Positions 6,232 to 49,567 are shown, counted from the stretch's first letter. The stretch: DNA of 64,000 nt from Syntrophorhabdales bacterium (GCA_049521495.1 JBEKOT010000002.1:36206-100205), one strand, 5' to 3'. The notes: generated by a model not told the origin, from the sequence alone. Translations and numbers: made by a program.

Positions 6232-6263
6232 GAGAATAACAAGGGGAGCCCCTTGTTATTCTC
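6232..6263. repeat. perfect palindrome GAGAATAACAAGGGG-AG-CCCCTTGTTATTCTC (copy 1 of 2)
   Basis: 15-nt arms read directly from the sequence. The core AATAACAAGGGG-NN-CCCCTTGTTATT recurs at 49542..49567. Confidence 0.9.
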
Positions 6264-6832
6264 TCAGCGAGGCAAAGGCTCTAAGCCTCGAGCGTCCACT
6301 CCGATTTCGTTTGTCGCTTTCTTCCTAAAATGTTGCGCCGAGGACTTCAACTGAGAGTACAATCTTTCATGTGGCAATCTTACCTTTGGCTACGACAATT
6401 CTGTTCTTCCTTCTAAGAGCTTACTGCAGGGTTCCGAGAAACCTTTGCCGAAAGACCCAGACCTAAGTCCCAATTGATTCTTGGACTTGGCAGTATTAGT
6501 GTTCATTTTGTGCAGTAATTCGGTGCGACGTGTCGGCACTCACACAATGGGATAGCTTTTACGTAATCGTAGGCTCTGCTGCAGGTGCCTTGATCGGATT
6601 GAAGTTCGTCGTTGTAATGCTCGTTGCCGAAAGACCGGCACTTCGTACGGCTATGGCCGGCGACGCGCGCCCGGGTGCGAAGTGATATGAAAGTTCCTCG
6701 CAAGATCTCTTATCCTGCCTGAACACTGCGACGGATCGCGTATCTCCTTGAGGAAATCTATGCCAAGAGACAGCGCATCAGCCACCCTCTTGCCGGTCGG
6801 CTTTTCCAGCGGCACCACGTGGTCGTCGGTCA

Positions 6833-7204
6833 TTATAATGACACCACGTAGATGTCATAGGGGTAAGGGTTGGGTATGAGCGTCGCCTCTCCCCTCGTCA
6901 GTCTGCCCTCCGGAAGCACGCGGTCCACGAACCGAGGGGTTGACTTTCCTCTCATCTCAAGGCAGAAAGGACACTGCCCCTTAATCTCGGGTCGTTCATA
7001 ATCGTGAAGGAAAAGCCGCTGCGGCCTGATCGCATTGAAGTGCGAGAGATGGCCAGACTTTCCCGTAAGAGGGTCGATTCTTACTTGAAACTCTTCAGTG
7101 TTCTCCGCGAACGCTTTCCGAGGGTCAAGAAATGTGCTGCGGCAATTGACAACTTCGAACTTCACAAGCGTCATGTCTGGCCTGTCTACTTGTGAATTCG
7201 TCAC
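6833..7204 (-). pseudogene. N-terminal fragment of a GalT-like (HIT-superfamily, galactose-1-phosphate uridylyltransferase-like) gene
   Basis: 123 aa with the Zn-knuckle-like QCPFCLEMRG and LIPNPYPY, then a premature stop. The catalytic HxHxQ half is missing and the surrounding 5.7-7.2 kb holds only short broken ORFs. Confidence 0.4.
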
Positions 7205-7361
7205 AACTGTTCGGCCTGCATCACAAAGATCGTATACTTTTCCCGCTGCGTGATATCAGCCGGCCTCAGCCAATGGCCACATCTGTCGTCGAAATAGAGA
7301 GTTGTATGCCCACACCAACTTCCGGGATTTCCGCCACCAGACATCCCTTTGCCTCTCTGCC

Positions 7362-8309
7362 TCACTTGCTCCAGCTCGTTATTATTTGTTCTGCCATCGT
7401 ATAGGGATCGACATGCCTTGCCACCAAATCCGCGAGAATCCTGTCCCATAAATGTTCCCGTTCAATTCTTTCCATCACCTGCTCAGTTATCCTTCCTTCG
7501 AGTATTTTGACGAAAGTTGTTTTCATTCGTTCCTTAACCTTTTGATCAAAACAGCCGCCTTGGAGCAACGCCTCCCTATGGCGATAAACCGCTGACACCA
7601 CTTCCGCAACCCCTTTTCCTGAAATCGCCTCCGTCTTCAAAATGGGAGGAGCCCAGTTATCGTATCTTGCACCTGCGATCTCCAAGGCCAGCCTCAGGTC
7701 CTCTTCCATCTTCCCGGTACCTTCTCGTTCGCACTTGTTGATCACAAAAATATCTCCAATTTCGATAATGCCTGCCTTCATAGCCTGGATCTCGTCTCCC
7801 ATTCCGGGAACTAGTACGACGACGGAGGTGTTTGCTAGATGTGCGACGTCGACCTCGTCCTGACCTACTCCCACCGTCTCGACGAGAATGACATCCTTAC
7901 CCATGGCATCCATGATATTGATGATGTCGTATGTCGCTCTCGATAGCCCTCCCAGGTACCCGCGGGTGGCCAAAGAGCGTATGAAAACACCCTCATCGGT
8001 AGCGTGGCGCTGCATCCGAATTCTGTCGCCTAGAAAGGCGCCTCCCGAGAACGGACTGGAAGGATCTATAGCAACAGCACCGACGGTCTTGCCTTCCTTA
8101 CGAAGCAAATCGATCACCGTATCAACCAATGTCGACTTGCCTGCTCCGGGTGCTCCCGTAATTCCTACCACATACGCCTTCCCTGTATAACGGTACAACT
8201 GCTTTAGAGTTTCGAGTGCCTCGGGTATTCGATCTTCCACATCTCTCATTAATCGGGATGCGGTAAGAATATCCCCGGCTATAACACGGTCAATGGCGTT
8301 CATTGACAC
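7362..8309 (-). CDS. meaB: methylmalonyl-CoA-mutase-associated G-protein chaperone (MeaB/ArgK family)
   Basis: 315 aa; P-loop GITGAPGAGKSTL, DPSSPFSGGAFLGDRIRM, VETVGVGQ, NKCE (NKxD-like). Confidence 0.9.
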   Translation of the reverse strand: MSMNAIDRVIAGDILTASRLMRDVEDRIPEALETLKQLYRYTGKAYVVGITGAPGAGKSTLVDTVIDLLRKEGKTVGAVAIDPSSPFSGGAFLGDRIRMQRHATDEGVFIRSLATRGYLGGLSRATYDIINIMDAMGKDVILVETVGVGQDEVDVAHLANTSVVVLVPGMGDEIQAMKAGIIEIGDIFVINKCEREGTGKMEEDLRLALEIAGARYDNWAPPILKTEAISGKGVAEVVSAVYRHREALLQGGCFDQKVKERMKTTFVKILEGRITEQVMERIEREHLWDRILADLVARHVDPYTMAEQIITSWSK

Positions 8310-8532
8310 AAAGTATCATTATTTTATACACAGAGGCAATAAAAAAATATTCACATCTGAAATTTATGTTGACAAAACCAATGTAACCATATTATCATCG
8401 TTTGTTAGCTACAAAATGGCTATAAAAGAGAAAACAAAGCTAAGCCAGTGACACTATTTATCATACATGGATAATATATTAAGGGTACAGAGTACCATAT
8501 TTTAATATAAAAGACCCGAAGAGGAGGTAATT

Positions 8533-10161
8533 ATGGAGGAATTTTCTACTGCAAGATTTGAGGTTGAATTCAAGAACAGGACAGTCCCTTACCTGGTGCA
8601 GGCGAGAGCCAAGGAGTTGGGAGACAAGGTATTCTTCATGTTTGAGAAGCAGAAAGTCACGTACAAGGAACTCGATGCGAACGTGAACCGTGTTGCCAAC
8701 TCGCTTACCAAAATGGGGTTGAAGAAGGGCGACAAGGTATGCTTTATGATGAAGAATTCAATCGAATTCATTTACTCCTGGTTTGCACTGGGTAAGCTCG
8801 GTATCGTGATGGTGCCGATGAATCCGACGCTGCGGGGGAATCTTCTTCAGTACATCATTCACAATTCTGACGCAACCCTCGCCTTTGTCGACAATGATCT
8901 TGTAGATCGTGTTCAGTTCATAGAGGGTTCTATCCCGAAAATCAACGGTGTTGTGGTCGTGCAAGAGAATCCCGAGCACAAGGAATCAGTCAACTTCAAG
9001 CGGATCAAGGTGACGCCATTCGAGGCATTGTTAAAGGGGTCTCCATCCGCTCCGGGAGTCGAGGTGTTTCCCTGGGAGACGATGTCTATTCTCTACACCT
9101 CTGGAACTACCGGTCCTTCAAAAGGGGCTTTGCTCAGCCATCATTACTATTACAATACCGCTTGGTCAGCCCTCTATTACATGCAGCATTCAGAAAACGA
9201 CGTCTTATACTCCTGTCTTCCCTTTTTCCATGCAAACGCGTCGATGTCCTCTATCTACACAACGTTGCTCGTTAAAGCATCTTTTGCGATGGGAAAGAGG
9301 TTCAGCCTGAGAAGCTTCTGGGACGAGATCGATATGTATAAAGCGACTCACACCGATGTGATGGGTTCCATCCTCGTCCTTCTTATGAAGCAGGATCCAA
9401 AGCCCGACGACGCGAAGAACAGTCTAAAAGTAGTTAACTCTGTCCCGCTGATCCCAGACTCTCTTGAATTCGAGAAGAGGTTCGGGGTGAAACTGATAGG
9501 AATGTTCGGGGCGACAGAGACAAGCATATGCATCGCGTCGCCCTTCAATGAAGAGACAAAGCCTGATTCTTGCGGGAAAAGCCTGCCTCAGTACGAATGC
9601 CGCATCTTCGATGACAACGACATCGAGTGCCCGCCTGGTGTACCTGGGGAGATAGTGGTTCGGGGGAATCAGCCATTTATTCAGATGGATGGCTACTACA
9701 ATCTGCCCGACGTCAGCCTCAGAGTTTTCAGGAACCTCTGGTACCACACGGGAGACTATGGCATGCAGGACGAAAAAGGGTACTTCTATTTCGTAGACCG
9801 GAGGAAGGACTCGATCCGAAGGAGAGGCGAGAACATCTCGTCTTTTGAGGTAGAGGAAGTAGTTAATTCTCATCCGGCAGTACTTGAGTCGGCCGCAATC
9901 GCGATCAAAGACAAAGAAATGACCGAGGATGAAGTGAAGATATGCGTGATATTGAAGGAAGGGCAGACCCTGAATCCAGCTGATCTGATCATGTATTGTA
10001 AGGAACGGATGGCTTACTTCATGGTTCCCCGGTATATCGAATTCATGAAGGAGTTTCCCAAGACACCCAATCAGAAAATCGAGAAGTATAAGCTGCGGGA
10101 AGGAGGCATATCTGCAGCGACCTGGGACAGGGAAGCCGCAGGCATCAAGATCACACGATGA
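8533..10161 (+). CDS. AMP-forming acyl-CoA synthetase/ligase
   Basis: 542 aa; YTSGTTGPSKGA (AMP-binding motif), GDYG...DRRKDSIRRRGENIS. SD GAGGAGG upstream. Confidence 0.9.
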   Translation: MEEFSTARFEVEFKNRTVPYLVQARAKELGDKVFFMFEKQKVTYKELDANVNRVANSLTKMGLKKGDKVCFMMKNSIEFIYSWFALGKLGIVMVPMNPTLRGNLLQYIIHNSDATLAFVDNDLVDRVQFIEGSIPKINGVVVVQENPEHKESVNFKRIKVTPFEALLKGSPSAPGVEVFPWETMSILYTSGTTGPSKGALLSHHYYYNTAWSALYYMQHSENDVLYSCLPFFHANASMSSIYTTLLVKASFAMGKRFSLRSFWDEIDMYKATHTDVMGSILVLLMKQDPKPDDAKNSLKVVNSVPLIPDSLEFEKRFGVKLIGMFGATETSICIASPFNEETKPDSCGKSLPQYECRIFDDNDIECPPGVPGEIVVRGNQPFIQMDGYYNLPDVSLRVFRNLWYHTGDYGMQDEKGYFYFVDRRKDSIRRRGENISSFEVEEVVNSHPAVLESAAIAIKDKEMTEDEVKICVILKEGQTLNPADLIMYCKERMAYFMVPRYIEFMKEFPKTPNQKIEKYKLREGGISAATWDREAAGIKITR

Positions 10162-10207
10162 AGTCTAACTCGAACGCCATTCGCCCGAGGCGGGCTGGAG
10201 GGTAATC

Positions 10208-11905
10208 ATGTTTGACAAAGATTATTTGAAAAAAATAAGAGAAGAAAAAAAGCGCTGGGAGGAAACGGTCGTCAAAGAGAGGTTGGGTCAGGCTAAAGAG
10301 ATGAAGGATCCCTTCAAGACTGATTCGCAGATTGAGGTTAAGAGGTTGTATACTCCTCTTGACCTTGAAGAAGCCGGATTCGATTACCTGGCTGATTCCG
10401 GTTGGCCGGGCGCTTACCCCTTTGCACGGGGTATTGATCCTGTGATGTATCGTACTGCCCCCTGGGTGATGATGCAGTACAGCGGTTTTGGATCGGCTGA
10501 AGAAACCAATAAACGCTTTAAATACCTGCTTGGCCAGGGTGCTACCTCCTTCTCTATCGCTCTTGACTTGCCGACGCACAAGGCGCTTGATTCCGATGAT
10601 CCGCTTGCCGAAGGCGAGGTGGGGAAGACAGGGGTGCCTATCGACTCTCTTAAATCACTTGAGGCCATCTTTGATGAAATCAAGCTGGATTCAGTGAAAA
10701 TGTTCATCTGCGTTGGCATGTCTACAGGCCCTATTATTCTTCCCCTCTTTCTGTCTCTTGCAGAAAAGTCTGGAGTGCCTCCGAGCAACTTCGGGCTATT
10801 TATGACGAATGAATCTCTCATGGAATTTGCGTGTCGAGGAACTCAATTTACTACACCCGAGGGTCATTTCAGGCTCTCCGCCGACGTCGTTGAATACAGC
10901 GCGAAAAATTGTCCTAACTTCTCTCCCTTGCAGCTTTCCGGCTACCATGCTCGAGAAGCGGGAGCTACGGCAATTCAGGAACTCGCTTTTCCGCTGGCTA
11001 ACTGCATTGCCTATATTGAGGAAATGAGTAGAAGAGGTCTCTCGATTGACGATTATGCTGGAAGCTTTTCATGGTTTCTGTCCTCATCGCTTGATTTCTT
11101 AGAAGAGGTTGCTAAGTTCAGGGCTTTTAGAAAAATATGGGCGAAAATAGCGAGAGATCGCTTCGGGGCCAAGAACGCTAAGACCATGCAGGCAAAGATC
11201 ATGATCTACAGTGGAGGCAGTCATCTTACACGCCGTCAGCCCTACATTAACTTGGCCAGAACCACAATTCAGGCGTTAGCCTCCGTCCTGGGCGGTATTC
11301 AGTTTATGAACCTCTCTTCTTTTGATGAAGCTTATCAAATACCCACCCAGGAAGGCGCAACAATGGCTGTTCGCATTCAGCAGATACTGGCTTTCGAGAC
11401 GGGCGTGACGAAGACGGTGGATCCTCTTGCCGGAAGCTACTACATCGAGACGCTTACAAAGAAGATTGAAAACGGGGTCTACGACTATTTGGGAAAGATC
11501 GAGAAGATGGGGGGAGCAATCAAGGCGATTGAAAAGGGCTTTTACCAGTCCGAGATTGCTGAGCAGGCTTATCGCTATAATCGGGAAATCGAGTCAAAGG
11601 ACCGGATCAAGGTGGCCTTGAACGAGTTTGTTATGGATGAGGACGTTCGAGTTGCGCCTCTCCGATATGACCCGGACGCTGAGAGAAAGACGATTGATGC
11701 CCTTATAAGACTCCGTAAGGAAAGAGACAATGCGAAAGTCGAGAAGTGCTTGGACAATGTGAGGCGTGTTCTCAGAAGCAGCGATAATGCGATACCGGCC
11801 ATTCTAGATGCAGTGAAAGCGTATGCGACGGTTGGCGAACTTGGATCAGTTATTCGAGAAGTCTATGGGAGATATGAAGAAGGAATCACGCGGTTCCAAA
11901 TTTGA
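10208..11905 (+). CDS. B12-dependent acyl-CoA mutase, large (substrate-binding TIM-barrel) subunit
   Basis: 565 aa; [36 protein letters not shown]..., [13 protein letters not shown]. Size and architecture match the IcmA/HcmA/MCM large subunit. Substrate cannot be assigned by eye. Confidence 0.9.
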
Positions 11906-11919
11906 TGAGGAGGACGATC

Positions 11920-12324
11920 ATGGGGAGGGCAATCCGTATATTGATAGCGAAGCCAGGTCTAGATGGCCACGACCGGGGTGCGAAGCTAATCTCCAGAGTG
12001 CTTGTGGAGGCCGGCGTTGAAGTCATCTATACCGGAAAGTTCCAGACCCCTGAGCAGATAGTGGGAGCGGCAATCCAGGAGGGTGTGGATGGCATTGGGC
12101 TCAGCATCCTTTCTGGTTCCCACATGACGATGTTTAGGAAGGTACTTGACCTGCTAAAGCAGAAGAAGGTCGACGATGTCGTAGTGTTTGGGGGAGGCGT
12201 GATAATGCCTGATGATATTCCCCAGTTGCAGCAAATGGGCGTCGACAGAATCTTCCCCCCCGACACGCCCACTTCTCAGATTGTCGATTATGTGAAAGGA
12301 GTCAGGACCCGGAGAAATCGGTAG
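11920..12324 (+). CDS. acyl-CoA mutase small subunit, cobalamin-binding domain
   Basis: [17 protein letters not shown] carries the DxHxxG B12-binding motif, plus [12 protein letters not shown] at 11920 sits behind GAGGAGG; the tracked ORF begins at an upstream TTG at 11902. Confidence 0.9.
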
Positions 12325-12348
12325 GCAGGAGAGTCGACTTCCACGATT

Positions 12349-13053
12349 ATGCTAAAGATAGATGATTTACATCTCTTCTTCGGAAAGGCCCATATTTTGA
12401 AGGGCACATCGATTTTCGTGGGCGAGAATGAAATTGTATCGATCGTCGGATCGAATGGAGCAGGAAAAACAACGCTTCTCAATGCGATTTCCAGGCTCAT
12501 TCCTCAGAAGTCCGGAACGATTTTTTTCAACGACCTCTGCCTGGACAGAGTCCGCTACACGTCGGTGGTCCGTCTCGGCTTAATCCACGTTCCTGAAGGA
12601 AGGATGATCATACCTTCCCTCACAGTCAGGGAGAACCTTGATCTAGGTGCCTTTCATGAAGCAGCTAGGAAACGCCGCGGTGAGAGCTTGAAAGACGTGT
12701 ATCGATTGTTTCCTGTTCTGGAAGGGAGAAAGAGCCAGGTAGCAGGTACGCTGAGCGGGGGTGAACAACAGATGCTCGCGATAGGAAGAGGTTTGATGTC
12801 TCTACCAAGACTTTTGATGCTCGATGAGCCGACTCTTGGGCTGGGTCCTCTTGTTGTCGGACACATTTTTGACATTATTCGACAGATCAATGCAAAAGGC
12901 GTCGCTATCCTGTTGGTCGAACAAAACGTCAGGAAGGCGTTAAGCATTTCAACGCGCAGTTATGTGATGGAAAATGGGCACGTAACTCTGGAAGGGGCGG
13001 GGAGCGAGTTATTGGAGAATGAACTGATGAGGAAGGCATTTCTGGGGCTCTGA
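12349..13053 (+). CDS. ABC transporter ATP-binding protein, LivF-like (branched-chain amino acid/organic acid family)
   Basis: 234 aa; Walker A GSNGAGKTT, signature LSGGEQQML, Walker B LLMLDEP. Confidence 0.9.
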   Translation: MLKIDDLHLFFGKAHILKGTSIFVGENEIVSIVGSNGAGKTTLLNAISRLIPQKSGTIFFNDLCLDRVRYTSVVRLGLIHVPEGRMIIPSLTVRENLDLGAFHEAARKRRGESLKDVYRLFPVLEGRKSQVAGTLSGGEQQMLAIGRGLMSLPRLLMLDEPTLGLGPLVVGHIFDIIRQINAKGVAILLVEQNVRKALSISTRSYVMENGHVTLEGAGSELLENELMRKAFLGL

Positions 13054-13125
13054 GTAAGATTTGGACAAACAGCGGGCGGGTTCTTAGGCAAGGGGGTTTG
13101 GAGTCAATCAAAGAAAGGAGGAGTT

Positions 13126-14397
13126 ATGGGAAAAAGAAGCAGAAAGACCAATAGAAGTTTCGTACTGGTATCCATTCTTGTCGGTGTATGTCTATTGCTC
13201 TCAGCGTCAACCCCGATCCTCGCACAGAATCAGCCAAAGGAGATAAAGATTGGGATACTTTATTGCATGACCGGGCCTCTTGCATCGATTGCTCGTCTTT
13301 GTGTCAATGGGCATGAGATGGCGGCGGAAGAGATCAATGCGAAGGGGGGAATTAAGTCTCTCGGAGGAGCCAAGATCAAATTTGTGGTGGGCGATACCGA
13401 AAGCAAGCCCCAGGTAGCGATGTCGGCCGCTGAAAAGCTTATCACAAAGGATAACGTCGTTGCACTGCTTGGCCCGTATTCGAGCGGCATCGCCTTTCCA
13501 TCAACCCAAATCTCCGAAAAATACAAGTGTCCAAACATCCTGTCCGGCCCTGTTGCCAACCAGATCACCGAACGCGGCTTCAAGTATATCTTTCGCACGG
13601 TCTATAACGCGACTACAAATGCTCGGGTAGCTCTCGATTTTGTAAAATGGGTCGGGGACAAGACCGGGCAAAGGCCGAAAAGAGTCGCGATCCTTCACGA
13701 AGATACCCTTTTCGGGCAATCGACAGCGAAGTCGTGGAAGGAAATGTTGCCCAAGTACGGTCTTGAGCTCGTCGCGGAACTCCCTTATCAGAAGACGACC
13801 CAAGACCTCTCAACGACGATAATGAAGTTAAAGGCAGCAAAGCCAGATCTGGTTCTCCAGGTTTCTTACACCAATGACGCAATCCTCGTAACTCGAACGA
13901 TGTACGACCTCGATTTCAACTGTATGGGAAGAATTCCTTCCGGGGGAGGGCATATAGACCCGGCTTTCGCCAAGGCTGTGGGCAAGCTGGCTGACGATCT
14001 TATTGTCAATCACCATTACCATCCCTCTTTCAAGGGACCGAAAAACAAGAACCAAATTGCTAACGAGAAATATAAGAAGAAGTACGGGATTGACATGGAC
14101 GACTATAGCGGACCGGCCTATGACGCCACTTGGGTGCTTGCGGATGCGCTGGAAAGAGCGGGCTCAATGGACAGACAAAAGGTGAGAGACGCCATCGCAG
14201 CCACAGACATCAATTGGAATAATTCGCCGGTGCTGAGGCCATTCCAGTACAAATTTGATGCGACCGGGCAGGCGCCAGCAACGGGTGTCTTCACACAGTT
14301 TCGAGATGGCAAAATGCAGGTGATCTGGCCTGAGGAATATGCTTCTGCGAAGGTTGTATGGCCGATGCGGACGTGGAAAGAGAGAGGCCTCAGGTAA
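13126..14397 (+). CDS. ABC transporter periplasmic substrate-binding protein (type I PBP, LivK/Amino-acid-binding-like), secreted
   Basis: 423 aa; N-terminal signal peptide/TM (FVLVSILVGVCLLLSASTPILA); IKIGILYCMTGPLA... is typical of the Leu/Ile/Val-binding family. Confidence 0.85.
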   Translation: MGKRSRKTNRSFVLVSILVGVCLLLSASTPILAQNQPKEIKIGILYCMTGPLASIARLCVNGHEMAAEEINAKGGIKSLGGAKIKFVVGDTESKPQVAMSAAEKLITKDNVVALLGPYSSGIAFPSTQISEKYKCPNILSGPVANQITERGFKYIFRTVYNATTNARVALDFVKWVGDKTGQRPKRVAILHEDTLFGQSTAKSWKEMLPKYGLELVAELPYQKTTQDLSTTIMKLKAAKPDLVLQVSYTNDAILVTRTMYDLDFNCMGRIPSGGGHIDPAFAKAVGKLADDLIVNHHYHPSFKGPKNKNQIANEKYKKKYGIDMDDYSGPAYDATWVLADALERAGSMDRQKVRDAIAATDINWNNSPVLRPFQYKFDATGQAPATGVFTQFRDGKMQVIWPEEYASAKVVWPMRTWKERGLR

Positions 14398-14409
14398 GCA
14401 AAAAGGGTA

Positions 14410-14448
14410 GGCTGGAAGGAAGCGCCTGCTCCCTTCCAGCCGATTTTA
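14410..14448 (+). terminator. intra-operon hairpin (attenuator/partial terminator) after the binding-protein gene
   Basis: GGCTGGAAGG-12 nt-CCTTCCAGCC is a perfect 10-bp stem followed by GATTTTAT. It sits between the SBP stop and the permease start. Confidence 0.5.
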
Positions 14449-14469
14449 TAAGAGGAAGATTTCGAAAGC

Positions 14470-15342
14470 ATGGATAGCACATTCTTAGGGCAGGTGATCG
14501 TAAGTGGTTTTCTTACCGGAGGACTCTATGCCTTGGTGGCCGTCGGGCTCACCATGATTTTTGGAGTCCTCAAGATCATCAATTTTGCCCATGGGGAATT
14601 CCTGATGCTGGGAATGTATCTTAGCTTCTTCTTGACAACCTATCTGCATCTGGATCCCTACATCAGTCTTCTGGTAATTATTCCTGTCTTCTTTCTCTTC
14701 GGTGCCTTCGTTCAATATGGGTTGATCAACCGGATACTTTCGTCGACGTCAGATATACACATACTCTTTACGCTTGGCCTTTCCATGTTCCTTCAAAATG
14801 CCATGCTCTTCATATTTGGTCCGTACATGAGAAGCATCCAGACAAGCTACCTGAAGAAGGTCTACACTCTAGGCTCTTTGAATATCAACAGCACCCGCTT
14901 AATTGCCTTCATCTTTGCTCTGGTTATTACGGCAATTCTGTACCTATTTCTTAAAGAAAGCAATATAGGGAGGGCAATAAGGGCATGTGCTGATGAGAGA
15001 AAAGGCGCCAGGGTAGTCGGGATAGACATAGAGAGAATGTATCTTATTGCCTTTGGCATAGGTACCGCTTGTGCGGGGGCAGCAGGAGGACTCCTCATGC
15101 CATTTTGCTATGCTGACCCCCATGTTGGAACAACATTCATATTGGTCGCTTTTGTCGTTGTCGTTTTGGGTGGTATCGGTAACTTCATGGGCGCACTGAT
15201 AGGCGGTTTCATCATAGGATTTGCCGAGGCCTTTGGCTCCGTTGTCCTTCCCGATTCGCTGAAACAGGTCGTCACCTTCGGGATTCTGGTGCTGATTCTT
15301 TTTTTCAGGCCTACTGGTTTATTCGGAAAGGGAAGAGCATGA
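14470..15342 (+). CDS. ABC transporter permease, LivH-like
   Basis: 290 aa polytopic membrane protein. INFAHGEF motif near the N-terminus is typical of LivH. Confidence 0.9.
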   Translation: MDSTFLGQVIVSGFLTGGLYALVAVGLTMIFGVLKIINFAHGEFLMLGMYLSFFLTTYLHLDPYISLLVIIPVFFLFGAFVQYGLINRILSSTSDIHILFTLGLSMFLQNAMLFIFGPYMRSIQTSYLKKVYTLGSLNINSTRLIAFIFALVITAILYLFLKESNIGRAIRACADERKGARVVGIDIERMYLIAFGIGTACAGAAGGLLMPFCYADPHVGTTFILVAFVVVVLGGIGNFMGALIGGFIIGFAEAFGSVVLPDSLKQVVTFGILVLILFFRPTGLFGKGRA

Positions 15343-16364
15343 TGAAAAGTGTTGTCAGAAGCAGATCTTCTCTCGTTTTGGTTGCTCTCGGAATTGTTTG
15401 TCTCTTCCTGCCTGCAATCCTGGGCGAATACTTGATACATGTGATGATCCTGATCTTTTTCTATGCATATCTCGGGCAGTGCTGGAATATTCTTGGCGGC
15501 TATGCAGGACAACTTTCTATCGGCCATGCCGCATATTATGGGATCGGAGCTTATACTTCAACTCTTTTGTTTACACACCTCGGCCTCACGCCTTGGCTCG
15601 GCATGATTGCAGGGGGTGTGGCGGCAATGATGCTTGGCCTCTTTACCGGGTATCTTTGTTTCCGTTTCGGTCTCAAGGGACCTTACTTTGCACTGGCTAC
15701 TCTGGGCTTTGCCGAAATACTTCGGCTGATTTGTCTCAATATGACATCAATCGGGGGCGCACAGGGTATCCTAATCCCTCTTCTCGGCCAGGACTTCTTG
15801 AAGTTTCAATTTATGGAGCGAAAGTTCTTTTACTATATAGTCTTCGGAATGCTGATACTCTCGATCGCCGTTGTAACGAGAATTGAGAAAAGCAGAATGG
15901 GCTACTATTTCAGAGCCCTGCATCAGAATGAGGATGCGGCAGAAGCGCTTGGTATTGATATTACCCGCTACAAACTGATCGCGGTTGGCCTGAGCTCCTT
16001 CCTTACCGCCCTCGGCGGTACCTTCTATGCTCAGTATACGATGTATATTGAACCTGAAATCATGTTCGGTTCCTTCACATCCGTAGATATTCTTCTCAGA
16101 ACCATCATCGGGGGCGCGGGGACCGTGTACGGCCCCGTCATAGGTTCGTTTATCCTGACGCCTGTGTCGGAAATAATGCGTAATGTCGTGGGAGGCGGCA
16201 AATCGGGGATCAATATAATGGTCTTCGGTATTATTGTCATGCTTATCTGTATTTTCATGCAAAAGGGGATATTGCCCTGGTTGAAAGCCAGGGTGAGCAA
16301 TTATTTCGGCAGCGAAAACGAGGACAGCGCTTCCGAATATGTTATCAAGGAGGGGACATCATGA
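15339..16364 (+). CDS. ABC transporter permease, LivM-like
   Basis: 341 aa polytopic membrane protein; GQLSIGHAAYYGIGAY motif; ATGA overlap with the upstream permease. Confidence 0.9.
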   Translation: MMKSVVRSRSSLVLVALGIVCLFLPAILGEYLIHVMILIFFYAYLGQCWNILGGYAGQLSIGHAAYYGIGAYTSTLLFTHLGLTPWLGMIAGGVAAMMLGLFTGYLCFRFGLKGPYFALATLGFAEILRLICLNMTSIGGAQGILIPLLGQDFLKFQFMERKFFYYIVFGMLILSIAVVTRIEKSRMGYYFRALHQNEDAAEALGIDITRYKLIAVGLSSFLTALGGTFYAQYTMYIEPEIMFGSFTSVDILLRTIIGGAGTVYGPVIGSFILTPVSEIMRNVVGGGKSGINIMVFGIIVMLICIFMQKGILPWLKARVSNYFGSENEDSASEYVIKEGTS

Positions 16365-17991: not shown

Positions 17992-18005
17992 GCAGGCCGA
18001 GGAAG

Positions 18006-18731: not shown

Positions 18732-18750
18732 AAGAAACAAAGGAGATGGT

Positions 18751-26404: not shown

Positions 26405-26462
26405 CTAGCATGAAAAACCGGATGGTTTTGAGATCACTATTAAATAAATATAGGAGGTTACA

Positions 26463-28442
26463 ATGGGTAATCAGGCGAAATGGGATTACACACAATTCCC
26501 GGGCTATAAGAAATACCCGCATCTGTTCAAGCCGATCCAGATCGGTAAATTGACTATCCCGAACCGCATCAAGTATGCGGCCACCGAGGATAACCTGAAC
26601 GATAAGAACGGCTTTGTCACCGATGCAGACGTAGCTTATATCCGGGAGAGGGCCAAGGGCGTCGTGGGCGGCATTTGCACTATGCAGGGGGTTTACATGG
26701 ATGAGCCCCGGCAGGGTCAGGGCTATGTGGGCCAGGCTGCCTGCTGGGATGACAAGTACATACCCGGGCTGAAACGCCTCGCCGACGCGATCAAGGAGGA
26801 GGGCGCGATTGCCGCAACCCAGCTGATGCACTGCGGCCGTGTCGGGGCGGTAGACGTCGCTCAGTGTCAAGGCCCCTCGCCTGTTCCCCAGAGGCTGAGG
26901 ATCTTTCGGCCCGTCCAGGTGATGACGAAGGAAGATATCAGACAGAGCATCAAGGAGCACGTCGATGCGACGATCAGGCTGGTGAAAGCCGGTTTTGAGA
27001 TCGTGGAGATATCGGGCATCGTGGGTTACCTCATTTCAAATTTCATTTCGAGTTACACCAACAAGCGAACAGATGAATATGGTGGGGATATCAAAGGAAG
27101 GATGCGGTTCGTCACAGAAATCATCAAGGAGTGCAAGGCCGTCCTCGGTGACATCCCCCTCGGCATCAGGCTTTGCTCGGACGAGCTTCTGGATGACGTG
27201 CGAGGTAACACGCCTGAGGAATCGATGATCACTTACCAGATGGCCGAGGAAGCCGGTGTCGATTACATGAGCGTCACTCTGGGCTGGCAGGAATCCATCT
27301 ACCCCGTTATTTCCCGGGATATACCCCAGGGAAACTGGCTGCACCTGGCCAAGCGGGCGAAAGACCACATAAAGATACCCGTCATGATGGCCTACCGCCT
27401 CTTCGACCCGGCCATCCCCAACAAAGCAATAGGCGAAGGCATGACCGATATGTGGGAGATGTGCCGTCCTATGATCGCCGATCCACTCCTTCCGAAGAAG
27501 GTGCTCGAAGGGAACGAGGACGAGATCCGCTGGTGCGTGGCATGCAACGTGTGCCTCGCCAGGCTCTTCAGGGACGCACCCATGACCTGCTACATCAATC
27601 CGGTCTGTGCCCATGAGTGGGACCCCAGGTTCCAGATCAAGCCTGCCGATGTGAAAAAGAAGGTTATGGTAGTCGGTGCCGGAGCAGCGGGTATGGAGGC
27701 GGCCTGGGTTGCGGCCGAGCGGGGACACGAGGTCCATGTCTACGACAAACGGGGTGAACTGGGCGGAACGCTTCTCGAAGCGAGAAGGGCGCCTTATGGT
27801 GATGACGAACTCTATTCCGCAATCAACTTCGCAAGGGCCAAGGGCGAGAAAGCAGGCGTGGAGTACCACATGGAGACCCCAGTAACGCCGGAACTGATCG
27901 AAGAAGAAGCACCTGACACTGTTGTCCTTGCTCTTGGGGCGAAACACATAAAAGGCACCGCACCCGGATTTGAAAGGGAAAACGTGGTAGGCGTCCACGA
28001 CGTTCTCGCAGGCAAGGCAAAGGTCGGTGAGAACGTGGTCGTGTGGGGGAACTACAAGCCCGGCGTGGGCGTCGCCCTCTTCCTTGCGAAACAGGGGAAG
28101 AAAGTGACCATAGTGGGTAAGCACAAGGATTTCGCCATCGACGTCAATCCCTCTTTTCGTTGGCGTTATGCGGCCTTCCTCAGACAGAACGGCGTGAACG
28201 TATACAACGACTGCGACATCGCGGAGATTACAGGTGAAGGTGTTACGGTAGCCACCTATGACGGTTACAAGTTCCCTTTGAAAGCCGATACTGTGGTCTG
28301 CACCGAAAGGGCGCCCAACAAGGATCTCCAGGACGCAGTGAAGGAGCAGGGCATCGAGCTCTATACGGTTGGGGATATGGTAACACCACGTAACCTGTCG
28401 AGTGCCGTGCACGACGGGTACAAGATAGGGCTGAAGATATAA
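26463..28442 (+). CDS. OYE-domain / [4Fe-4S] / FAD-NAD(P)-binding oxidoreductase (2,4-dienoyl-CoA reductase / 2-enoate reductase family)
   Basis: 659 aa; N-terminal OYE TIM barrel (PNRIKYAAT..., QLMHCGR, TNKRTDEYGG), Cys cluster CVACNVCLARLFRDAPMTC, then VMVVGAGAAGMEAA Rossmann domains. Confidence 0.9.
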   Translation: MGNQAKWDYTQFPGYKKYPHLFKPIQIGKLTIPNRIKYAATEDNLNDKNGFVTDADVAYIRERAKGVVGGICTMQGVYMDEPRQGQGYVGQAACWDDKYIPGLKRLADAIKEEGAIAATQLMHCGRVGAVDVAQCQGPSPVPQRLRIFRPVQVMTKEDIRQSIKEHVDATIRLVKAGFEIVEISGIVGYLISNFISSYTNKRTDEYGGDIKGRMRFVTEIIKECKAVLGDIPLGIRLCSDELLDDVRGNTPEESMITYQMAEEAGVDYMSVTLGWQESIYPVISRDIPQGNWLHLAKRAKDHIKIPVMMAYRLFDPAIPNKAIGEGMTDMWEMCRPMIADPLLPKKVLEGNEDEIRWCVACNVCLARLFRDAPMTCYINPVCAHEWDPRFQIKPADVKKKVMVVGAGAAGMEAAWVAAERGHEVHVYDKRGELGGTLLEARRAPYGDDELYSAINFARAKGEKAGVEYHMETPVTPELIEEEAPDTVVLALGAKHIKGTAPGFERENVVGVHDVLAGKAKVGENVVVWGNYKPGVGVALFLAKQGKKVTIVGKHKDFAIDVNPSFRWRYAAFLRQNGVNVYNDCDIAEITGEGVTVATYDGYKFPLKADTVVCTERAPNKDLQDAVKEQGIELYTVGDMVTPRNLSSAVHDGYKIGLKI

Positions 28443-36009: not shown

Positions 36010-36061
36010 TTAAACAATGCTCTTAGGTGACTTCAAACTAAAGAATTTCAAAGAGGTTACA

Positions 36062-36100
36062 ATGGGTAATCAGGCGGTGAGGAGAAGGTTCAAGAAGTGA
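36062..36100 (+). pseudogene. 12-codon stub of a paralog of the OYE/FAD reductase gene (MGNQA...)
   Basis: 23-nt identity AGGTTACAATGGGTAATCAGGCG with 26455-26477 (SD plus the first 5 codons of ORF 26463). Diverges and stops after MGNQAVRRRFKK. Confidence 0.6.
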
Positions 36101-36155: not shown

Positions 36156-36659
36156 ACCCCTATCGAGGATTACCAGTTCGATTCCAGTATAAGGCGAAAA
36201 AGTCACGCTGCAACGCCTTCAGGAAGGAAGAGTCGGCCCAACCAACAGCGCCATGCCTCGCTGGAAGACACCAAAACCGAGTCAGGAACATTAACATACG
36301 GCACCGTATGTTATTCTTCACTACCAATGTCCACCTGATTTTGTGGCAGTGGGTGACCACTACCGATTTTGTGGACTGCTTCCTCCTACCTTCAATTCCT
36401 TTATAACTTTATTTGTCGCACTATTTCGCACTAGAGGATGGGATGGCCCTGTAAGAGTGGGGGTTCCACCGGGGTGCGGAATATCGATCCGGTCGCATTC
36501 GATCCTCACTATTTTTCCCGCATTACTCCCAGTCATAACCGGGTCAAAAGAGATTCGCCCACTGCGGCCTGGAAAACGCACAGTATACGCAAGCGGCAGA
36601 AGGTTTTTTCGGACTCTCTAAGTTTAGATATGTTTACCCCAAATAGGGGATGTTTTTAT

Positions 36660-36764
36660 ATGGCCGCGTTACATTTTGGTTACACTGTGAAAGACGTTGA
36701 CGAAGGTCTAAAAAAGATGGCGTCCGTTTCTCATCGGGTATGCGACTATAAGCCGGGGACGTAA
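36660..36764 (+). pseudogene. possible N-terminal stub of a VOC/glyoxalase-type gene
   Basis: MAALHFGYTVKDVDEGLKKM... resembles a VOC N-terminal beta-alpha unit, then stops after 34 codons. Confidence 0.2.
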
Positions 36765-45814: not shown

Positions 45815-45856
45815 GCTGAAGCGGATTGCGGCCGTGTCGGGCCGCTCCCGCTTAGT
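45815..45856 (+). terminator. bulged double hairpin element, copy B, followed by T-rich tract
   Basis: GCTGAAGCGG...CCGCTTAG outer stem; inner GCGGCC-GTGTCG-GGCCGC; then TTTCTTCGTT. Confidence 0.5.
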
Positions 45857-46134
45857 TTCTTCGTTACCTTCACATGGTAATGCGTGATTCAGGGCTTTCA
45901 GCCCGACGCCTGACTCGTAGGTGTTTTTGAGAAGGCAACTGTTGCAGATTCAGAGGAGAGTTGTAAGGACCGATTGGGCTACATTAGTCCGTCAATATTA
46001 AGACTTATGGTCTATGCTTGGGGGAAAGGGAGAACAGGAGCCGAAAAGTGGCCGTCTTAAACTTGCGTCTCATCCCCTCCCTCTCCTCACTACATTGTAC
46101 ACTCTTTATGCCTCGGGCAACGCGAGAATGGCAG

Positions 46135-46719
46135 CTATAAAAACCGGAGGGTCCCGCACTTACCGTTGAAGGTTCTGCCCGGCCTTGCCGAATCCTTGAG
46201 GCTGTGAGTCCCTTCGAGCACCTTTGCCGGGAGAATTCCGAAATCCTGTATCTCCGCCAGTGACAGGATGTGGGAGCGCAAATTGATCTTCTTTGCCCCG
46301 ATACCCAGCTTTCTTCGCAGGTTATAGCGATGTGTGTCCACAGCGCGAGGCGACAGATTAAGAAATCGCGCAATTTGCTTAGTTGTCTTGCCTTCCCTGA
46401 TCAGGTAAGCGACCTCTATTTCTCGCCGTGTTAGATTGAGCGTTCTCGATGATATGCGGATGGCAAAAGGCGACACGATATAAGCCAGTCCTCGCTGTAT
46501 GATGTCAACATACTCTGTTTGAGTTTGATCCAGTTTTGTCCTTCTCAGTTTTTCCAGGTATGGAACGATCATTTCTCTTACGTTCGTCAGGACCCCTTCC
46601 CGAAGCTGCGCCCGGTCTTCGTGGTACCTTTCAAGGAGAACGCTAAGTGCGGTATGCGCTTCCTCTAGGCGCCTGGATTTCTCGCTTAATGCCTTGTCCG
46701 CGGCTCTTTCCCCTTCCAT
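46135..46719 (-). CDS. LuxR/FixJ-type HTH transcriptional regulator without recognisable sensor domain
   Basis: 194 aa; coiled-coil-like N-terminus, LTRREIEVAYLIREGKTTKQIARFLNLSPRAVDTHRYNLRRKLG (GerE/LuxR_C HTH). Confidence 0.8.
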   Translation of the reverse strand: MEGERAADKALSEKSRRLEEAHTALSVLLERYHEDRAQLREGVLTNVREMIVPYLEKLRRTKLDQTQTEYVDIIQRGLAYIVSPFAIRISSRTLNLTRREIEVAYLIREGKTTKQIARFLNLSPRAVDTHRYNLRRKLGIGAKKINLRSHILSLAEIQDFGILPAKVLEGTHSLKDSARPGRTFNGKCGTLRFL

Positions 46720-46829
46720 CCCGTCTGTTTATAACCACATGAATCCGTCTGTCGACGTGAAGTGTAGAGGCTCCCCCCTCTCATCGAAAAAGGTTGCGGC
46801 GACGTTACTATACGGGATATCGAACCGAA

Positions 46830-46857
46830 AATCACCTACCCAAACGGGTAGGTGATT
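46830..46857. promoter_or_regulatory. lux-box-like perfect palindrome upstream of the LuxI-like gene
   Basis: AATCACCTACCC-AAAC-GGGTAGGTGATT (12-nt perfect arms). TAATAT/TATAAA -10-like hexamers lie 13-17 bp downstream, which puts the dyad centre near -40. Confidence 0.5.
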
Positions 46858-46942
46858 CTTCTAGGCCCCCTAATATAAAAGTGATGGAGATACTTCTCGG
46901 ATTACGAATCGGCCGCGAATTAAGCGGCAAAAGGAGAACACC

Positions 46943-47695
46943 ATGCGATCAGAATCGCAAATGGCGGACTCTTGGAATGCCGACACTCCGGCGGTTCGAG
47001 ATATATTCTTTCAAGAAGCCGGGTTTGTGATAAAAAGTGTATTCAGCACCGATGAGAGGACTCAGGCATATGAGTTGAGGCATAGAATTTATTGTGAGGA
47101 ACTCGGCTGGGTTCCTCGCTCAGAGTCCCTTATGGAAATCGACCAATACGACAGCCAGACTGCTTTCATCGGTGTGTTCGATCAAGCCGATTCACTTCTC
47201 GGCTTTATCAGAATGGCCCTGCCCGGAGCTCCTTTCATGATAGAAAGGGAATTCTCGTGCCTTATAAGCCCGTGGCATAAAATCCGGAAAGAACTGGATA
47301 CATCGGAGGCGACCAGGGCGTGTGTGGCCCAGGGAGCCCGCGGGGTATTGGTGCGCGGAAGTTTTGGCGCCCATCGGCTGTTCATGCTCGTGTGTAGAGG
47401 TATCTACCATTGGTGTTGTTTGAATAACGTCAGATACGTTTATATGGTCGTGGAAGACATAATGTACAGGATGTTACGAGCGAAAGGGTTTCACGGTCAT
47501 CTGGTCGGCGAGCCCGTAACGATGGCGGATGGATGCGTGGCAATGGCAGCCGTCATAGACTGGAAGGAATATATATCGACCAACAGCTTGAAGCGCCCTG
47601 AGTTCACGAAATGGTTCAGTCAATACCGATCAGACCATTATGAAGAGCCACGGCCACGGCCTGAACTCTACTCACCACCCCGAGTTTTCCCATGA
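46943..47695 (+). CDS. LuxI-family acyl-homoserine-lactone synthase-like / related N-acyl amino acid synthase
   Basis: 250 aa; YELRHRIYCEELGWVPRSESLMEIDQYDSQTAFIGVF...GFIRMALPGAPFMIEREF...TSEATRACV follows the LuxI pattern (R..vF...LgW, E.DqyD, RL.P, E.SRf.V). AGGAG SD. Confidence 0.7.
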   Translation: MRSESQMADSWNADTPAVRDIFFQEAGFVIKSVFSTDERTQAYELRHRIYCEELGWVPRSESLMEIDQYDSQTAFIGVFDQADSLLGFIRMALPGAPFMIEREFSCLISPWHKIRKELDTSEATRACVAQGARGVLVRGSFGAHRLFMLVCRGIYHWCCLNNVRYVYMVVEDIMYRMLRAKGFHGHLVGEPVTMADGCVAMAAVIDWKEYISTNSLKRPEFTKWFSQYRSDHYEEPRPRPELYSPPRVFP

Positions 47696-48374
47696 TGTTC
47701 TTCAGATGAAATTTCACCGTATTACTGCTAATCGAAAGTATCTTGGAAATCTCCCACGTACTCTTACCATCTTTGGCCCAGGTCAAGACTTCCTTCTCTC
47801 TCGACGATAGCTCCACGGTCAAGCGGCGTGACTCCCTGTTTGCTCTTTCCACGATTCGATTAAATGCCTGGTCCAGATGAGGGATGGCGTATTCCAGTAT
47901 TATGTTTATACGAGGATGGCGCCTGACACGAGGTCCGGCGAAAGAAAAAAGCGATCTTCTATCCCCTTTGACTGTCATTGCACCGTGAGAATAACCCTCT
48001 TTGAGTCCGAAATCCTCGGCAGCGTATCTGAAGGATTTAGCGTTGTATTTCTTATAGGTGTCCGTCCAGTATTGGATTCCTTGACTATTTCTTGCACTTT
48101 CGTGCATGATCGGATCAACCTTGTCAAATCCTTTCTCGACGTAAAGTCTGCACCATTCAGGAGGGAAACCCGCGTTGATGAAGTGTCTTGTGTCCATGGC
48201 GGCCTCGGTTCTGACGAGAGCGCAGACTGCATTCTCATACTCGAATAGGTTTCTTAAACGGGATATGTTCGCCACCAGTTGTTCTTCAGTATTGCAGGAT
48301 AGGCTGGAATGAATCACTTCAATTAGGACGCACAGGTCTTCTTTGGAAAAGAGATTTCCCGTGCTCATACCCAT
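47616..48374 (-). CDS. LuxR-family regulator with autoinducer-binding domain
   Basis: 252 aa; FINAGFPPEWCRLYVEKGFDKVDPIM (autoinducer-binding domain pattern); C-terminal LSSREKEVLTWAKDGKSTWEISKILSISSNTVKFHLKNIMGKLG. Confidence 0.8.
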   Translation of the reverse strand: MGMSTGNLFSKEDLCVLIEVIHSSLSCNTEEQLVANISRLRNLFEYENAVCALVRTEAAMDTRHFINAGFPPEWCRLYVEKGFDKVDPIMHESARNSQGIQYWTDTYKKYNAKSFRYAAEDFGLKEGYSHGAMTVKGDRRSLFSFAGPRVRRHPRINIILEYAIPHLDQAFNRIVERANRESRRLTVELSSREKEVLTWAKDGKSTWEISKILSISSNTVKFHLKNIMGKLGVVSRVQAVAVALHNGLIGID

Positions 48375-48628
48375 CGTTCATCCACCGAAAGATGCTAAAA
48401 CAAGGCCGACATAAAGTACAAACATGCGAGTCGGGCTCGCTTTGCTTCCCTATTCTGCAAGACAGTGGTGTTCTGGGTTGCTTTAATTCTCATATAAGCC
48501 ATCAACTATGTCAAGGGAAAATACTTGGATGCCCTCCGTATTGTTGCCTATCGGTGGCTTTACAACACGGGTTCTTTCCAAAACCTGCAGACACTTATTA
48601 TTAGGATGGTACTGGTACAAAGTGAGCT

Positions 48629-49276
48629 TTACATGCCAATAAAGACGACCTTTTGCAGGGTAGCCCGTTCGCTCACTTCTTTGCTAATTGTGCTCCCCCT
48701 CCCTAGGCCTTTGAACAAGATCATCTTCCCATCACTAATCAACTCAACCTCTTTGATGGCGCCCGGCCCGTCGCCGTCAGTATAGACAACGAGGTCGTCA
48801 TTTCGGATGGCGGAGACAGGCAAGGTGATGATGTAAAGGTACGAGTTGCGACGAAGATGAGGATAAAGAGCATCTGTCGAAACCTTGAAGCAGACTACAT
48901 GATCAGATTTATGTCCGGGCAGCGACGCCACATGCTCCACTTCATGCTCGGGTCCCTGCATCACCATTGTGCCTTTCTCAATGACCATGGCGACAACTGG
49001 TATACCCGCATCAGGTCTGCTCAGGAATTCGGCCCTGTCCACCTTGAATATCCGCGACCACTTCTGTTGCGCCCTGGTACCGAAGTTGACAGCAGCCGTC
49101 TCCACCTTGCCAACATAGCTTACGGTTGCCTCCCCCAATTCTGCGGCCTGGGCTTGAGTGAGTCCAAGGTTCTTTCGAATTCTAATAAAGTTCCGCGCAA
49201 TCAGTACGCCGTCCGGGGCAGAGGCTAACTCCGTGAATGTCATGTCTTTTATCCTTCTACGCTCTTTTCTTCTCAC
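48629..49276 (-). CDS. CI/LexA-like repressor (XRE HTH plus S24-peptidase-like domain)
   Basis: 215 aa; IRKNLGLTQAQAAELGEATVSYVGKVE (HTH); C-terminal beta-rich domain with VSTDALYP in place of GDSMxP and a later K (AIKEVEL). Confidence 0.6.
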   Translation of the reverse strand: MRRKERRRIKDMTFTELASAPDGVLIARNFIRIRKNLGLTQAQAAELGEATVSYVGKVETAAVNFGTRAQQKWSRIFKVDRAEFLSRPDAGIPVVAMVIEKGTMVMQGPEHEVEHVASLPGHKSDHVVCFKVSTDALYPHLRRNSYLYIITLPVSAIRNDDLVVYTDGDGPGAIKEVELISDGKMILFKGLGRGSTISKEVSERATLQKVVFIGM

Positions 49277-49541
49277 AGCACTATATTATCAAACTTCTGG
49301 TTTTCCTTCCCGCATTATCAGTCGCAACGGACAAAGTTATCAATCGGCCGCTATCCAATTGTCGGTGCGCTCGAAAGAATAACGGCATGATTCAGCAATT
49401 TTGTTGCATCTTGCGGATGGCATTCCTCGCCCGGTACAGGAGGCTGAACGCCTTTAGTTGTAGGTGAAGCAGAGATGCGCGAATCCTTGTCACGCGTTCA
49501 ACATTACGGGGTTAAAAACTACAACCATACCTCCTTAAGAG

Positions 49542-49567
49542 AATAACAAGGGGTTCCCCTTGTTATT
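49542..49567. repeat. perfect palindrome AATAACAAGGGG-TT-CCCCTTGTTATT (copy 2 of 2)
   Basis: 12-nt arms; the left side shares GAGAATAACAAGGGG with 6232-6246. Confidence 0.9.

Follow-up and report, generated by a model that had tools for sequence, protein, structure and literature searches.

Two perfect 26-bp palindromes lie 43 kb apart in a 64-kb stretch of DNA from a Syntrophorhabdales bacterium (referred to here as the window; positions are counted from its first letter), and one of them follows the gene of a small serine recombinase. We propose, as the probable reading, that these palindromes are DNA sites recognised by an uncharacterised family of serine recombinases of ~245 amino acids (aa), to which that enzyme belongs. 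They are candidate sites, and from their setting we infer binding, catalysis and a past joining of gene modules. More narrowly, and as judged from sequence alone, we regard it as very probable that the 12-2-12 palindrome serves the adjacent serine recombinase as a dimer-binding or crossover-type site. The proposal is built on the observed linkage of site and recombinase gene, the anatomy of the sites, the domain architecture of the enzyme and the fixed arrangement of the region.

Both palindromes lie exactly where the sequence-only reading had placed them (copy 1, or site 1, AATAACAAGGGG-AG-CCCCTTGTTATT at 6235-6260, with perfect 15-nt arms across 6232-6263; copy 2, or site 2, AATAACAAGGGG-TT-CCCCTTGTTATT at 49542-49567), and they are the only two matches to the 26-bp palindrome in the window with up to 3 mismatches, as against 0 matches in 100 shuffles. 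Similarity between the copies is restricted to about 30-38 bp, with no further homology between the two loci within 300 bp on each side; the likeness is longest when one copy is inverted (6235-6272 versus 49530-49567, 38 nt, 89%), and the aligned centres are then AG and AA. A half-site profile, built from sites of the family described below and reaching a top score of 6.3 in shuffled sequence, finds exactly 3 dimeric sites in the window (Table 1). The claim of only two copies thus stands for matches with up to 3 mismatches and fails for a third, diverged member of the family, site 3. Site 3 shares its right arm, base for base, with the recombinase-linked sites of the loci designated L021, L022 and L035 (their right, or 'R', arm) and is therefore an R-R palindrome; sites 1 and 2 are L-L. 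The profile revealed no isolated half-sites above chance in the window; a weak half-site previously suggested at 4882-4893 scores 1.3 where the 99.9th percentile of shuffled sequence is 1.7, and is at chance level.

The site family that emerges is 28-36 bp long, GAATAACAAGGGG-NN-CCCCTTGTTATTC with purine-rich and pyrimidine-rich flanks. Downstream DNA was readable for nine other recombinases (~245 aa, 56-89% identical), which together with the window gives 10 contexts (Table 1). A site is clear downstream of the recombinase gene in nine of these; at the tenth, L031, there is a weaker relative whose two arms have changed in concert, to ..ACACAC... The profile found just two further sites in some 250 kb of fetched DNA not targeted for sites, and the linkage of site and recombinase is therefore far beyond chance. 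Furthermore, in all seven asymmetric (L-R) sites the L arm (..CAAGGGG) points toward the recombinase gene. Among the distant members the site begins 1-8 nt past the stop codon of the recombinase, while in the subclade of the window it lies 0.5-2.8 kb downstream (506 nt past the stop in the window itself), and the best-preserved elements carry a single site directly after the recombinase gene. Nucleotide homology between the window and L019 comprises the recombinase open reading frame (ORF; 85%) and the 31-nt site, with nothing in between, the site being conserved better than the gene; between the window and L035, homology continues through the 3' end of a DUF932 gene and stops at the site. L024, L026 and L031 have no HTH_17 gene, the partner of the recombinase in the window, beside their sites; the recombinase itself is never missing. 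In L020, L024 and L025, the site forms codons 2-11 of a conserved small ORF, whose ATGA overlaps the recombinase stop. This ORF, of the form MKxNNKGxGxLFSxELKxxVKR..., is found at 10735-10881 in L020, at 10735-10926 in L025 and from 10741 in L024.

The anatomy of the sites accords with the enzyme. Counted from the centre, positions 7-13 are the most conserved, and conservation has faded by about 16; in the structure of the LI integrase bound to attP, a helix of the recombinase domain contacts positions 9-11, and the zinc-ribbon motif occupies positions 16-24 (PMC3783163). The observed pattern is thus as expected for a protein with a recombinase domain and without a zinc ribbon. In layout the sites are, as far as their bases tell, serine-recombinase crossover sites, with inverted half-sites (13-2-13), a non-palindromic 2-bp centre and linkage to a recombinase gene. 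None of the 17 centres is self-complementary (AG, AC, AA/TT, CA/TG and GA/TC occur), for which the chance is roughly 0.02 (0.75^13) if about 13 lineages are independent.

Pfam confirms the serine recombinase gene and the divergent HTH_17 gene that the sequence-only reading had named (Table 1); the same divergent pair occurs as called genes in L020, L021 and L022, and in L019 the HTH_17-like partner is an uncalled reading frame found by tblastn. The recombinase has 953 homologues at E <= 1e-10, almost all of 244-247 aa with a mode of 245 aa, and judged by these sequences the window gene is not truncated. Named homologues come from Syntrophus, Syntrophorhabdales, Deltaproteobacteria and Nitrospirae. 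Catalytic residues including Y7, R9, S11, R82, R85 and D86 are invariant across 30 family members, the window protein among them, and in its sequence the protein carries the hallmarks of the serine recombinase superfamily, namely the serine of a Y-x-R-V-S-T motif and invariant arginine and aspartate. An AlphaFold2 model (mean predicted local distance difference test score, pLDDT, 80.5) finds its best PDB matches in Bxb1, a complex of a serine integrase with its recombination directionality factor (9dxd, which we take to be the SPbeta integrase) and phiC31 integrase, with 232-245 aligned columns. The match spans the catalytic and recombinase domains only and includes neither zinc ribbon nor coiled coil. 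The protein is thus predicted to consist of a catalytic domain, an alpha-E helix and a recombinase-domain-like C-terminus, ending after the helical region, and Pfam finds no HTH_7 domain in it. From domain content and model together it follows that the enzyme is neither a small recombinase of the Hin/Gin/resolvase type nor a full large serine recombinase. Of the earlier proposal of a hix-like site beside its recombinase, the identity of the site gains from the linkage, and the Hin/Gin-type enzyme is lost to the missing HTH_7 domain and the integrase fold.

The plasmid collection searched holds relatives of the recombinase only at <=40% identity, labelled 'recombinase family protein', and the viral contigs hold no close relatives of it or of the 615-aa protein encoded further right in the window, and no copy of the palindrome. 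A profile search there gave one useful locus, L031. Literature searches on the architecture of the recombinase, on DUF932 in association with serine recombinases and on the int-alpA RNA motif found nothing specific.

Scanning metagenomes with the palindrome gave seven contigs from peat. These represent at least four contexts beyond that of the window (X, Y, L014, L017), which are unrelated to the window and carry perfect GAATAACAAGGGG / CCCCTTGTTATTC arms around variable centres (TG, TG, TG and AA). Across the family, homology breaks exactly at the site in X versus Y, in L026 and in the window versus L035. On peat contigs L013/L016 and L015 (sites at L016 5242 and L015 761) the 3' ends of two type IIG-like restriction-modification methyltransferase genes are 90.6% identical through the palindrome, and the DNA beyond is wholly different, with an IS110 fragment on one side of the comparison and a DUF362-like gene on the other. 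The L015 contig also has two sites 9.1 kb apart (761-788 and 9903-9930), one perfect with centre TG and one degenerate with centre TC, which bracket a multi-gene segment as in the window.

In the mechanism that we envisage for the recombinase sites, a dimer would bind the symmetric outer GAATAACA / TGTTATTC motifs through its recombinase domains, and this would set the two catalytic serines over the central dinucleotide. Where two sites share the same non-palindromic centre, the enzyme could cut both with a 2-nt stagger and rejoin them after rotation, as other serine recombinases do. That the crossover would fall at the centre is suggested because the arm combinations L-L, L-R and R-R all occur, breakpoints sit at the sites, and self-complementary centres are absent among the 17. 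The recombinase usually stands at one end of small integrative, replicative elements (L020, L025 and L019) which also carry a tyrosine integrase or adjoin tRNA genes; a single site together with a tyrosine integrase points to the resolution of multimers or cointegrates, or to site-to-site integration, and one of these may be the primary job of the enzyme. Site 1 would then be the own site of the recombinase module, and sites 2 and 3 would be left over from earlier joining of modules and locked by the mismatch of their centres.

This proposal might be carried further, in a form that we hold only tentatively and on balance doubt: the mini recombinase and its 28-bp site could constitute a module-exchange system in which sites are junctions and the central dinucleotide serves as the address. 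Blocks such as restriction-modification genes, an HNH plus ATPase pair, a cyclic-oligonucleotide-based antiphage signalling system (CBASS) with quorum sensing, and catabolic operons would be captured, swapped and locked into the islands of Syntrophorhabdales and related anaerobes, and the perfect L-L and R-R palindromes would arise by wrong-orientation exchange between L-R sites. The evidence that speaks for it consists of the breakpoints and the arm mosaics. When such an exchange was considered as the origin of sites 1 and 3, the L-L and R-R arms fitted and the centres did not, as AG/CT would be predicted in both products; site 1 (AG) agrees with this and site 3 (CA) does not.

An unlikely alternative is that the palindromes are bidirectional intrinsic terminators, or repetitive extragenic palindromic (REP)-like repeats spread with mobile DNA, in which the recombinase has no part. 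In the perfect copies a GGGG..CCCC core does lead into TTGTTATTCTCT on either strand, a terminator scan flags both strands, the RNA hairpins reach -20 to -34 kcal/mol (z from -2.4 to -5.6), convergent genes flank most of these copies (sites 1 and 3, X, Y and L019), the variable centre behaves like a loop, and similar palindromes occur sporadically in unrelated taxa, with six matches in 185,579 species genomes. However, terminator function does not require identity over 28 bp between unrelated loci and between genomes whose recombinases are just 56-89% identical. The recombinase-adjacent sites, moreover, form weak hairpins or none (-0.4 to -5.7 kcal/mol for the DNA; z = 0.33 for L026), so that it is the outer GAATAACA / TGTTATTC motifs and not the hairpin that are conserved; these sites stand within operons, at the start of a co-transcribed ORF overlapping the recombinase stop, and copy 2 lies between divergent genes. 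Copy number is also low, with 3 sites in 64 kb, 7 metagenome contigs and 0 matches from the Syntrophorhabdales lineage in those species genomes, and no RAYT-like gene is evident near the window sites, the one Y1_Tnp gene (in L020) being about 9 kb from the L020 site. The caution voiced earlier, that the palindromes could simply be terminators or REP-type repeats, is therefore only partly apt: the perfect copies resemble bidirectional terminators, and their recombinase-adjacent relatives do not.

It is likewise improbable that the site is a regulatory operator, bound by the recombinase as a repressor, by the HTH_17 protein or by another protein, which would control the downstream small ORF or the DUF932 gene with no exchange of DNA. 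In L020, L024 and L025 the site overlaps the start-codon region of the gene after the recombinase, copy 2 occupies a divergent promoter region near an int-alpA RNA motif, and a precedent exists in the Tn3/gamma-delta resolvases, which autoregulate through their res sites. On the other hand, an HTH_17 operator is at odds with the loci where that gene is missing by the site and the recombinase is there, an operator would be purposeless at the 3' ends of unrelated genes where solo copies occur, exact breakpoints and L/R mosaics fit exchange better than regulation, and the recombinase family has kept all its catalytic residues.

Whether the interval between copies 1 and 2 moves at present can be judged from its sites and from assemblies. 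The centres of the three sites (AG, CA and TT) include no two that are equal or complementary, and only matching centres yield ligatable products with serine recombinases (PMC3783163); since all three differ, no productive exchange would be expected among sites 1-3 and the arrangement would be fixed. Look-ups in the population of the window, a Syntrophorhabdales metagenome-assembled genome that occurs in about 150 sample blocks of the assembly index and whose Joint Genome Institute (JGI) samples are in many cases peat metagenomes by their accession names, were anchored on the recombinase, CBASS JAB and DUF3854 genes; 23 contigs were read at each anchor, of which about 20, all long, cover the relevant junction. 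All junction-covering contigs at the three anchors have the same gene order and orientation, in a comparison of consensus assemblies from an index of about 150 sample blocks, which would miss rare variants. Thus, the structural variants that the sequence-only reading had asked for are not seen in these ~20 assemblies per anchor, its caveat that AG and TT centres would block exchange between the copies is borne out (on the opposite strand TT reads AA), and the evidence does not support an invertible or excisable 43-kb segment. That copies 1 and 2 are hixL/hixR-like partners between which the recombinase inverts or excises the interval is accordingly very improbable: the 12-2-12 layout, a recombinase gene beside one site and outside the interval as with gin, and flanks that are best alike when inverted, with centres then one base apart (AG versus AA), are outweighed by the non-identical centres, the third site with centre CA inside the interval, the single orientation with no deletion, and a recombinase without a Hin-type HTH domain. 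By reasoning, a single inversion between the observed sites cannot derive the present order from an L024-like order either.

Several points weigh against the proposal that the palindromes are recombinase sites. The linkage comprises 10 contexts, and in L020, L024 and L025 part of the conservation of the site could stem from coding. Sites in the subclade of the window do not adjoin the recombinase and instead follow DUF932 or other genes; the solo perfect palindromes (X/Y, L014 and L017) have no recombinase gene in their readable flanks; and the perfect palindromes also score as bidirectional terminators. No population evidence of recombination is seen at any site, all assemblies of the window population being identical in arrangement.

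From left to right, the region falls into four parts with the three sites as their boundaries: a recombinase module, a catabolic block of 30 kb, a 13-kb block with CBASS and quorum-sensing genes (bounded by sites 3 and 2) and a tRNA-Leu element. The sites hence sit at seams between the gene modules of a genomic island (Table 1). Left of site 1, the module of HTH_17, recombinase, DUF932 and site is common to the window, L035 and L019. The two short ORFs between the recombinase and copy 1 are pieces of a DUF932 pseudogene, which tblastn with the intact 308-aa L035 protein recovers in two pieces of 54% and 78% identity. Short ORFs had been noted beside both palindromes: the one before copy 1 is the 3' remnant of this DUF932 gene, and those beside copy 2 are probably spurious, because copy 2 sits between divergently transcribed genes, namely a CI-like HTH gene and the operon of the integrative element. 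Site 3 occupies a 950-bp gap between convergent genes, with the catabolic block on one side and the tetratricopeptide (TPR) and CBASS genes on the other.

Table 1. Features of the 64-kb window, followed by the sites downstream of recombinase genes at other loci (positions there are relative to the recombinase stop codon; percentages are identities of the recombinases)
Feature	Position	Strand	Details
Protein kinase and argB genes	left of HTH_17 gene
HTH_17 (excisionase/AlpA-type) gene	4675..4857	-	divergent from recombinase gene; Pfam PF12728, E = 1.3e-14
246-aa 'mini' serine recombinase gene	4988..5728	+	Resolvase E = 2e-36; PF07508 positions 1-50 of 102
DUF932 pseudogene	5823..6219	+	residues 1-48 and 226-308 kept; internal deletion of about 177 codons
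Site 1	6230..6265	.	L-L type, centre AG; core 6234-6261 GAATAACAAGGGG-AG-CCCCTTGTTATTC; profile score 51.7
Catabolic block	about 30 kb		MeaB, coenzyme A (CoA) ligase, mutase, ATP-binding cassette (ABC) transporter, flavin and Fe-S oxidoreductases
GNAT plus DUF2080 pair, small ferredoxin	after catabolic genes
Site 3	36285..36320	.	R-R type, centre CA; core 36289-36316 CATTAACATACGG-CA-CCGTATGTTATTC; profile score 35.1
TPR gene	between site 3 and CBASS operon
Complete type II CBASS operon	37462..42418	-	Prok-JAB/Cap3, ThiF/Cap2, SMODS cyclase, SAVED-domain effector; Pfam, gene calls
Unknown genes, then LuxI/LuxR, then CI-like HTH gene	between CBASS operon and copy 2		CI-like HTH gene at 48629-49276, minus strand
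Site 2	49537..49572	.	L-L type, centre TT (AA on other strand); core 49541-49568 GAATAACAAGGGG-TT-CCCCTTGTTATTG; profile score 48.8
int-alpA RNA motif	49674..49739	+	Rfam RF02996, 39.7 bits versus gathering score 35.8
Small integrative element	49829..56444	+	52-aa ORF, DUF5659, DUF3854, 615-aa protein, small ORFs, HTH_17, HTH_3, tyrosine integrase; Pfam, gene calls
Tyrosine integrase gene	55335-56444		in tRNA-Leu element
tRNA-Leu	56485..56568	-	ARAGORN and Rfam; directly adjoins tyrosine integrase gene
Site, L035 (89%)	1003 nt past stop		GAATAACAAGGGG-AG-CCGTATGTTATTC; 14 nt after intact DUF932 gene
Site, L019 (88%)	1247 nt past stop		perfect palindrome, centre AG; after two DUF932 ORFs
Site, L022 (85%)	2747 nt past stop		right arm CCGTATGTTATTC, centre AC
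Site, L021 (79%)	686 nt past stop		right arm CCGTATGTTATTC, centre AC
Site, L020 (70%)	1-8 nt past stop		GAATGACAAACGG-AA-CGGTAAGTTATTC
Site, L025 (67%)	1-8 nt past stop		GAATAACAAGGGG-AC-CGGTACGTTATTC
Site, L024 (64%)	1-8 nt past stop		GAATAACAAGGGG-AA-CGGTGTGTTATTC
Site, L026-30 (64%)	1-8 nt past stop		GATTAACGAGGGG-GA-CGGTATGTTATTT
Site, L031 (56%)	begins at last base of stop codon		AATTAACACACGG-GT-CGGTGTGTGAATC

Near site 3 we also noticed a 24-nt exact duplicate (26454-26477 and 36053-36076) consisting of the ribosome-binding site and first five codons of an Oxidored_FMN gene, both copies being preceded by an operator-like palindrome, TAGCTATAAyATArCTAT; the second copy stands as an orphan some 210 nt to the left of the site, which suggests a past rearrangement there. 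In the block between sites 3 and 2, a LuxI-type autoinducer synthase, a LuxR receptor and an extra GerE-type regulator are encoded at 46135-48374, and acyl-homoserine-lactone-type quorum sensing seems, to our knowledge, unusual for a lineage of strictly anaerobic syntrophs.

The int-alpA RNA motif, 107 nt right of copy 2, probably marks where the tRNA-Leu integrative element begins. To place the left end of the island, a repeat of the 3' end of tRNA-Leu was sought near copy 2 and near 4-5 kb, and nothing beyond 10-15 nt was found. As a speculation, we considered that the recombinase module and the tRNA-Leu element are halves of one element split by a 43-kb insertion, in a layout analogous to L020, L025 and L024, where the recombinase is at one end and a tyrosine integrase or a DUF5659 module at the other; no protein of the element, however, is homologous to those of L020, L025 or L024 beyond the generic HTH_17 and integrase families. 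Next to the tRNA-Leu gene, at window 56638, 95 nt present in sister assemblies (L004 16088-16182) are absent. They hold the start of a PilB-like T2SSE gene (ribosome-binding site, ATG and roughly 11 codons), which is therefore 5'-truncated or re-started in the window strain. At the other end, a conserved string of ~30 nt resembling a tRNA 3' end (...CTCCnTCCGCCATATTT) lies about 100 nt beyond HTH_17 in L019 (about 9575-9610) and L035 (about 9585-9620), with a full tRNA-Lys 130 nt further left in L019; the string may be a left attachment-site (att) remnant of the recombinase module, and the window may have a degenerate look-alike at 4548-4573.

If the pairing of enzyme and site holds, it would join a compact serine recombinase of ~245 aa, with catalytic and recombinase domains only, to a short, nearly symmetric site of 28 bp in which the central dinucleotide alone would set polarity. 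Such an enzyme would be a naturally occurring 'minimal' relative of the large serine integrases that serve as genome-engineering tools, and the pairing would directly test what the zinc-ribbon and coiled-coil domains contribute in the large enzymes. Furthermore, sites at module seams offer a testable route for the assembly of islands in uncultured syntrophic anaerobes. For the annotation of the window the outcome is negative, with no sign of a phase-variable 43-kb segment.

Among known systems, the Hin/Gin/Cin/Pin invertases with their 26-bp hix/gix sites share with the present case the 12-2-12 layout, a gene beside one site and a centre that would set polarity. They are, however, proteins of ~190 aa with a C-terminal domain of the HTH_7 type that the window recombinase lacks, their sites are paired with matching centres where the window has AG, CA and TT, both orientations occur in populations where the window has one arrangement, and the interval is 1-4 kb instead of 30-43 kb. 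The resolvase/res systems (Tn3/gamma-delta, Sin, beta and ParA of RP4) are alike in combining a small serine recombinase with a single cognate locus by its own gene on a replicating mobile element, and multimer resolution is a plausible role for the mini recombinase too. In contrast, res contains accessory subsites II and III where the mini recombinase would have a single dimer site, no extra half-sites or accessory sites above chance being found near the recombinase gene in the window, L019, L035 and L020; res also lies upstream of its gene instead of downstream, and the C-terminal domain differs. REP elements and intrinsic terminators resemble the perfect copies in their GC-cored hairpins, U-rich tails and usual position between convergent genes, and differ in the identity of the sites across genomes, their link to one recombinase family, the conservation of relatives that form no hairpin and their low copy number. 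The pdif sites (XerC/D, Acinetobacter plasmids) and integron attC sites are likewise short, conserved and palindromic and border exchangeable modules including defence genes. These are served by tyrosine recombinases, with 6-8-bp spacers or a folded single-stranded attC, whereas module exchange here is suggested by sequence comparison; if true, pdif modules and integron cassettes would have an analogue based on a serine recombinase.

The large serine integrases (Bxb1, phiC31, SPbeta and A118/LI) share the catalytic domain, the alpha-E helix and the recombinase-domain fold with the mini recombinase, their att sites likewise consist of inverted half-sites around a non-palindromic central dinucleotide, and half-site conservation falls where the recombinase-domain helix binds (PMC3783163). 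They measure 450-700 aa against 246 aa, and their zinc-ribbon and coiled-coil domains are absent here, so that the known basis for attP/attB discrimination and directionality is missing; correspondingly, the sites of the present family, at ~28-36 bp, can be fully symmetric and have no conserved motif at positions 16-24. Since the carrier elements have a tyrosine integrase by a tRNA gene, the mini recombinase is probably not their main integrase. The window protein thus matches the N-terminal two-thirds of the large serine recombinases and not their full architecture of four domains and >400 aa, and its model identifies it as an uncharacterised, widespread short variant of the large-serine-recombinase fold.

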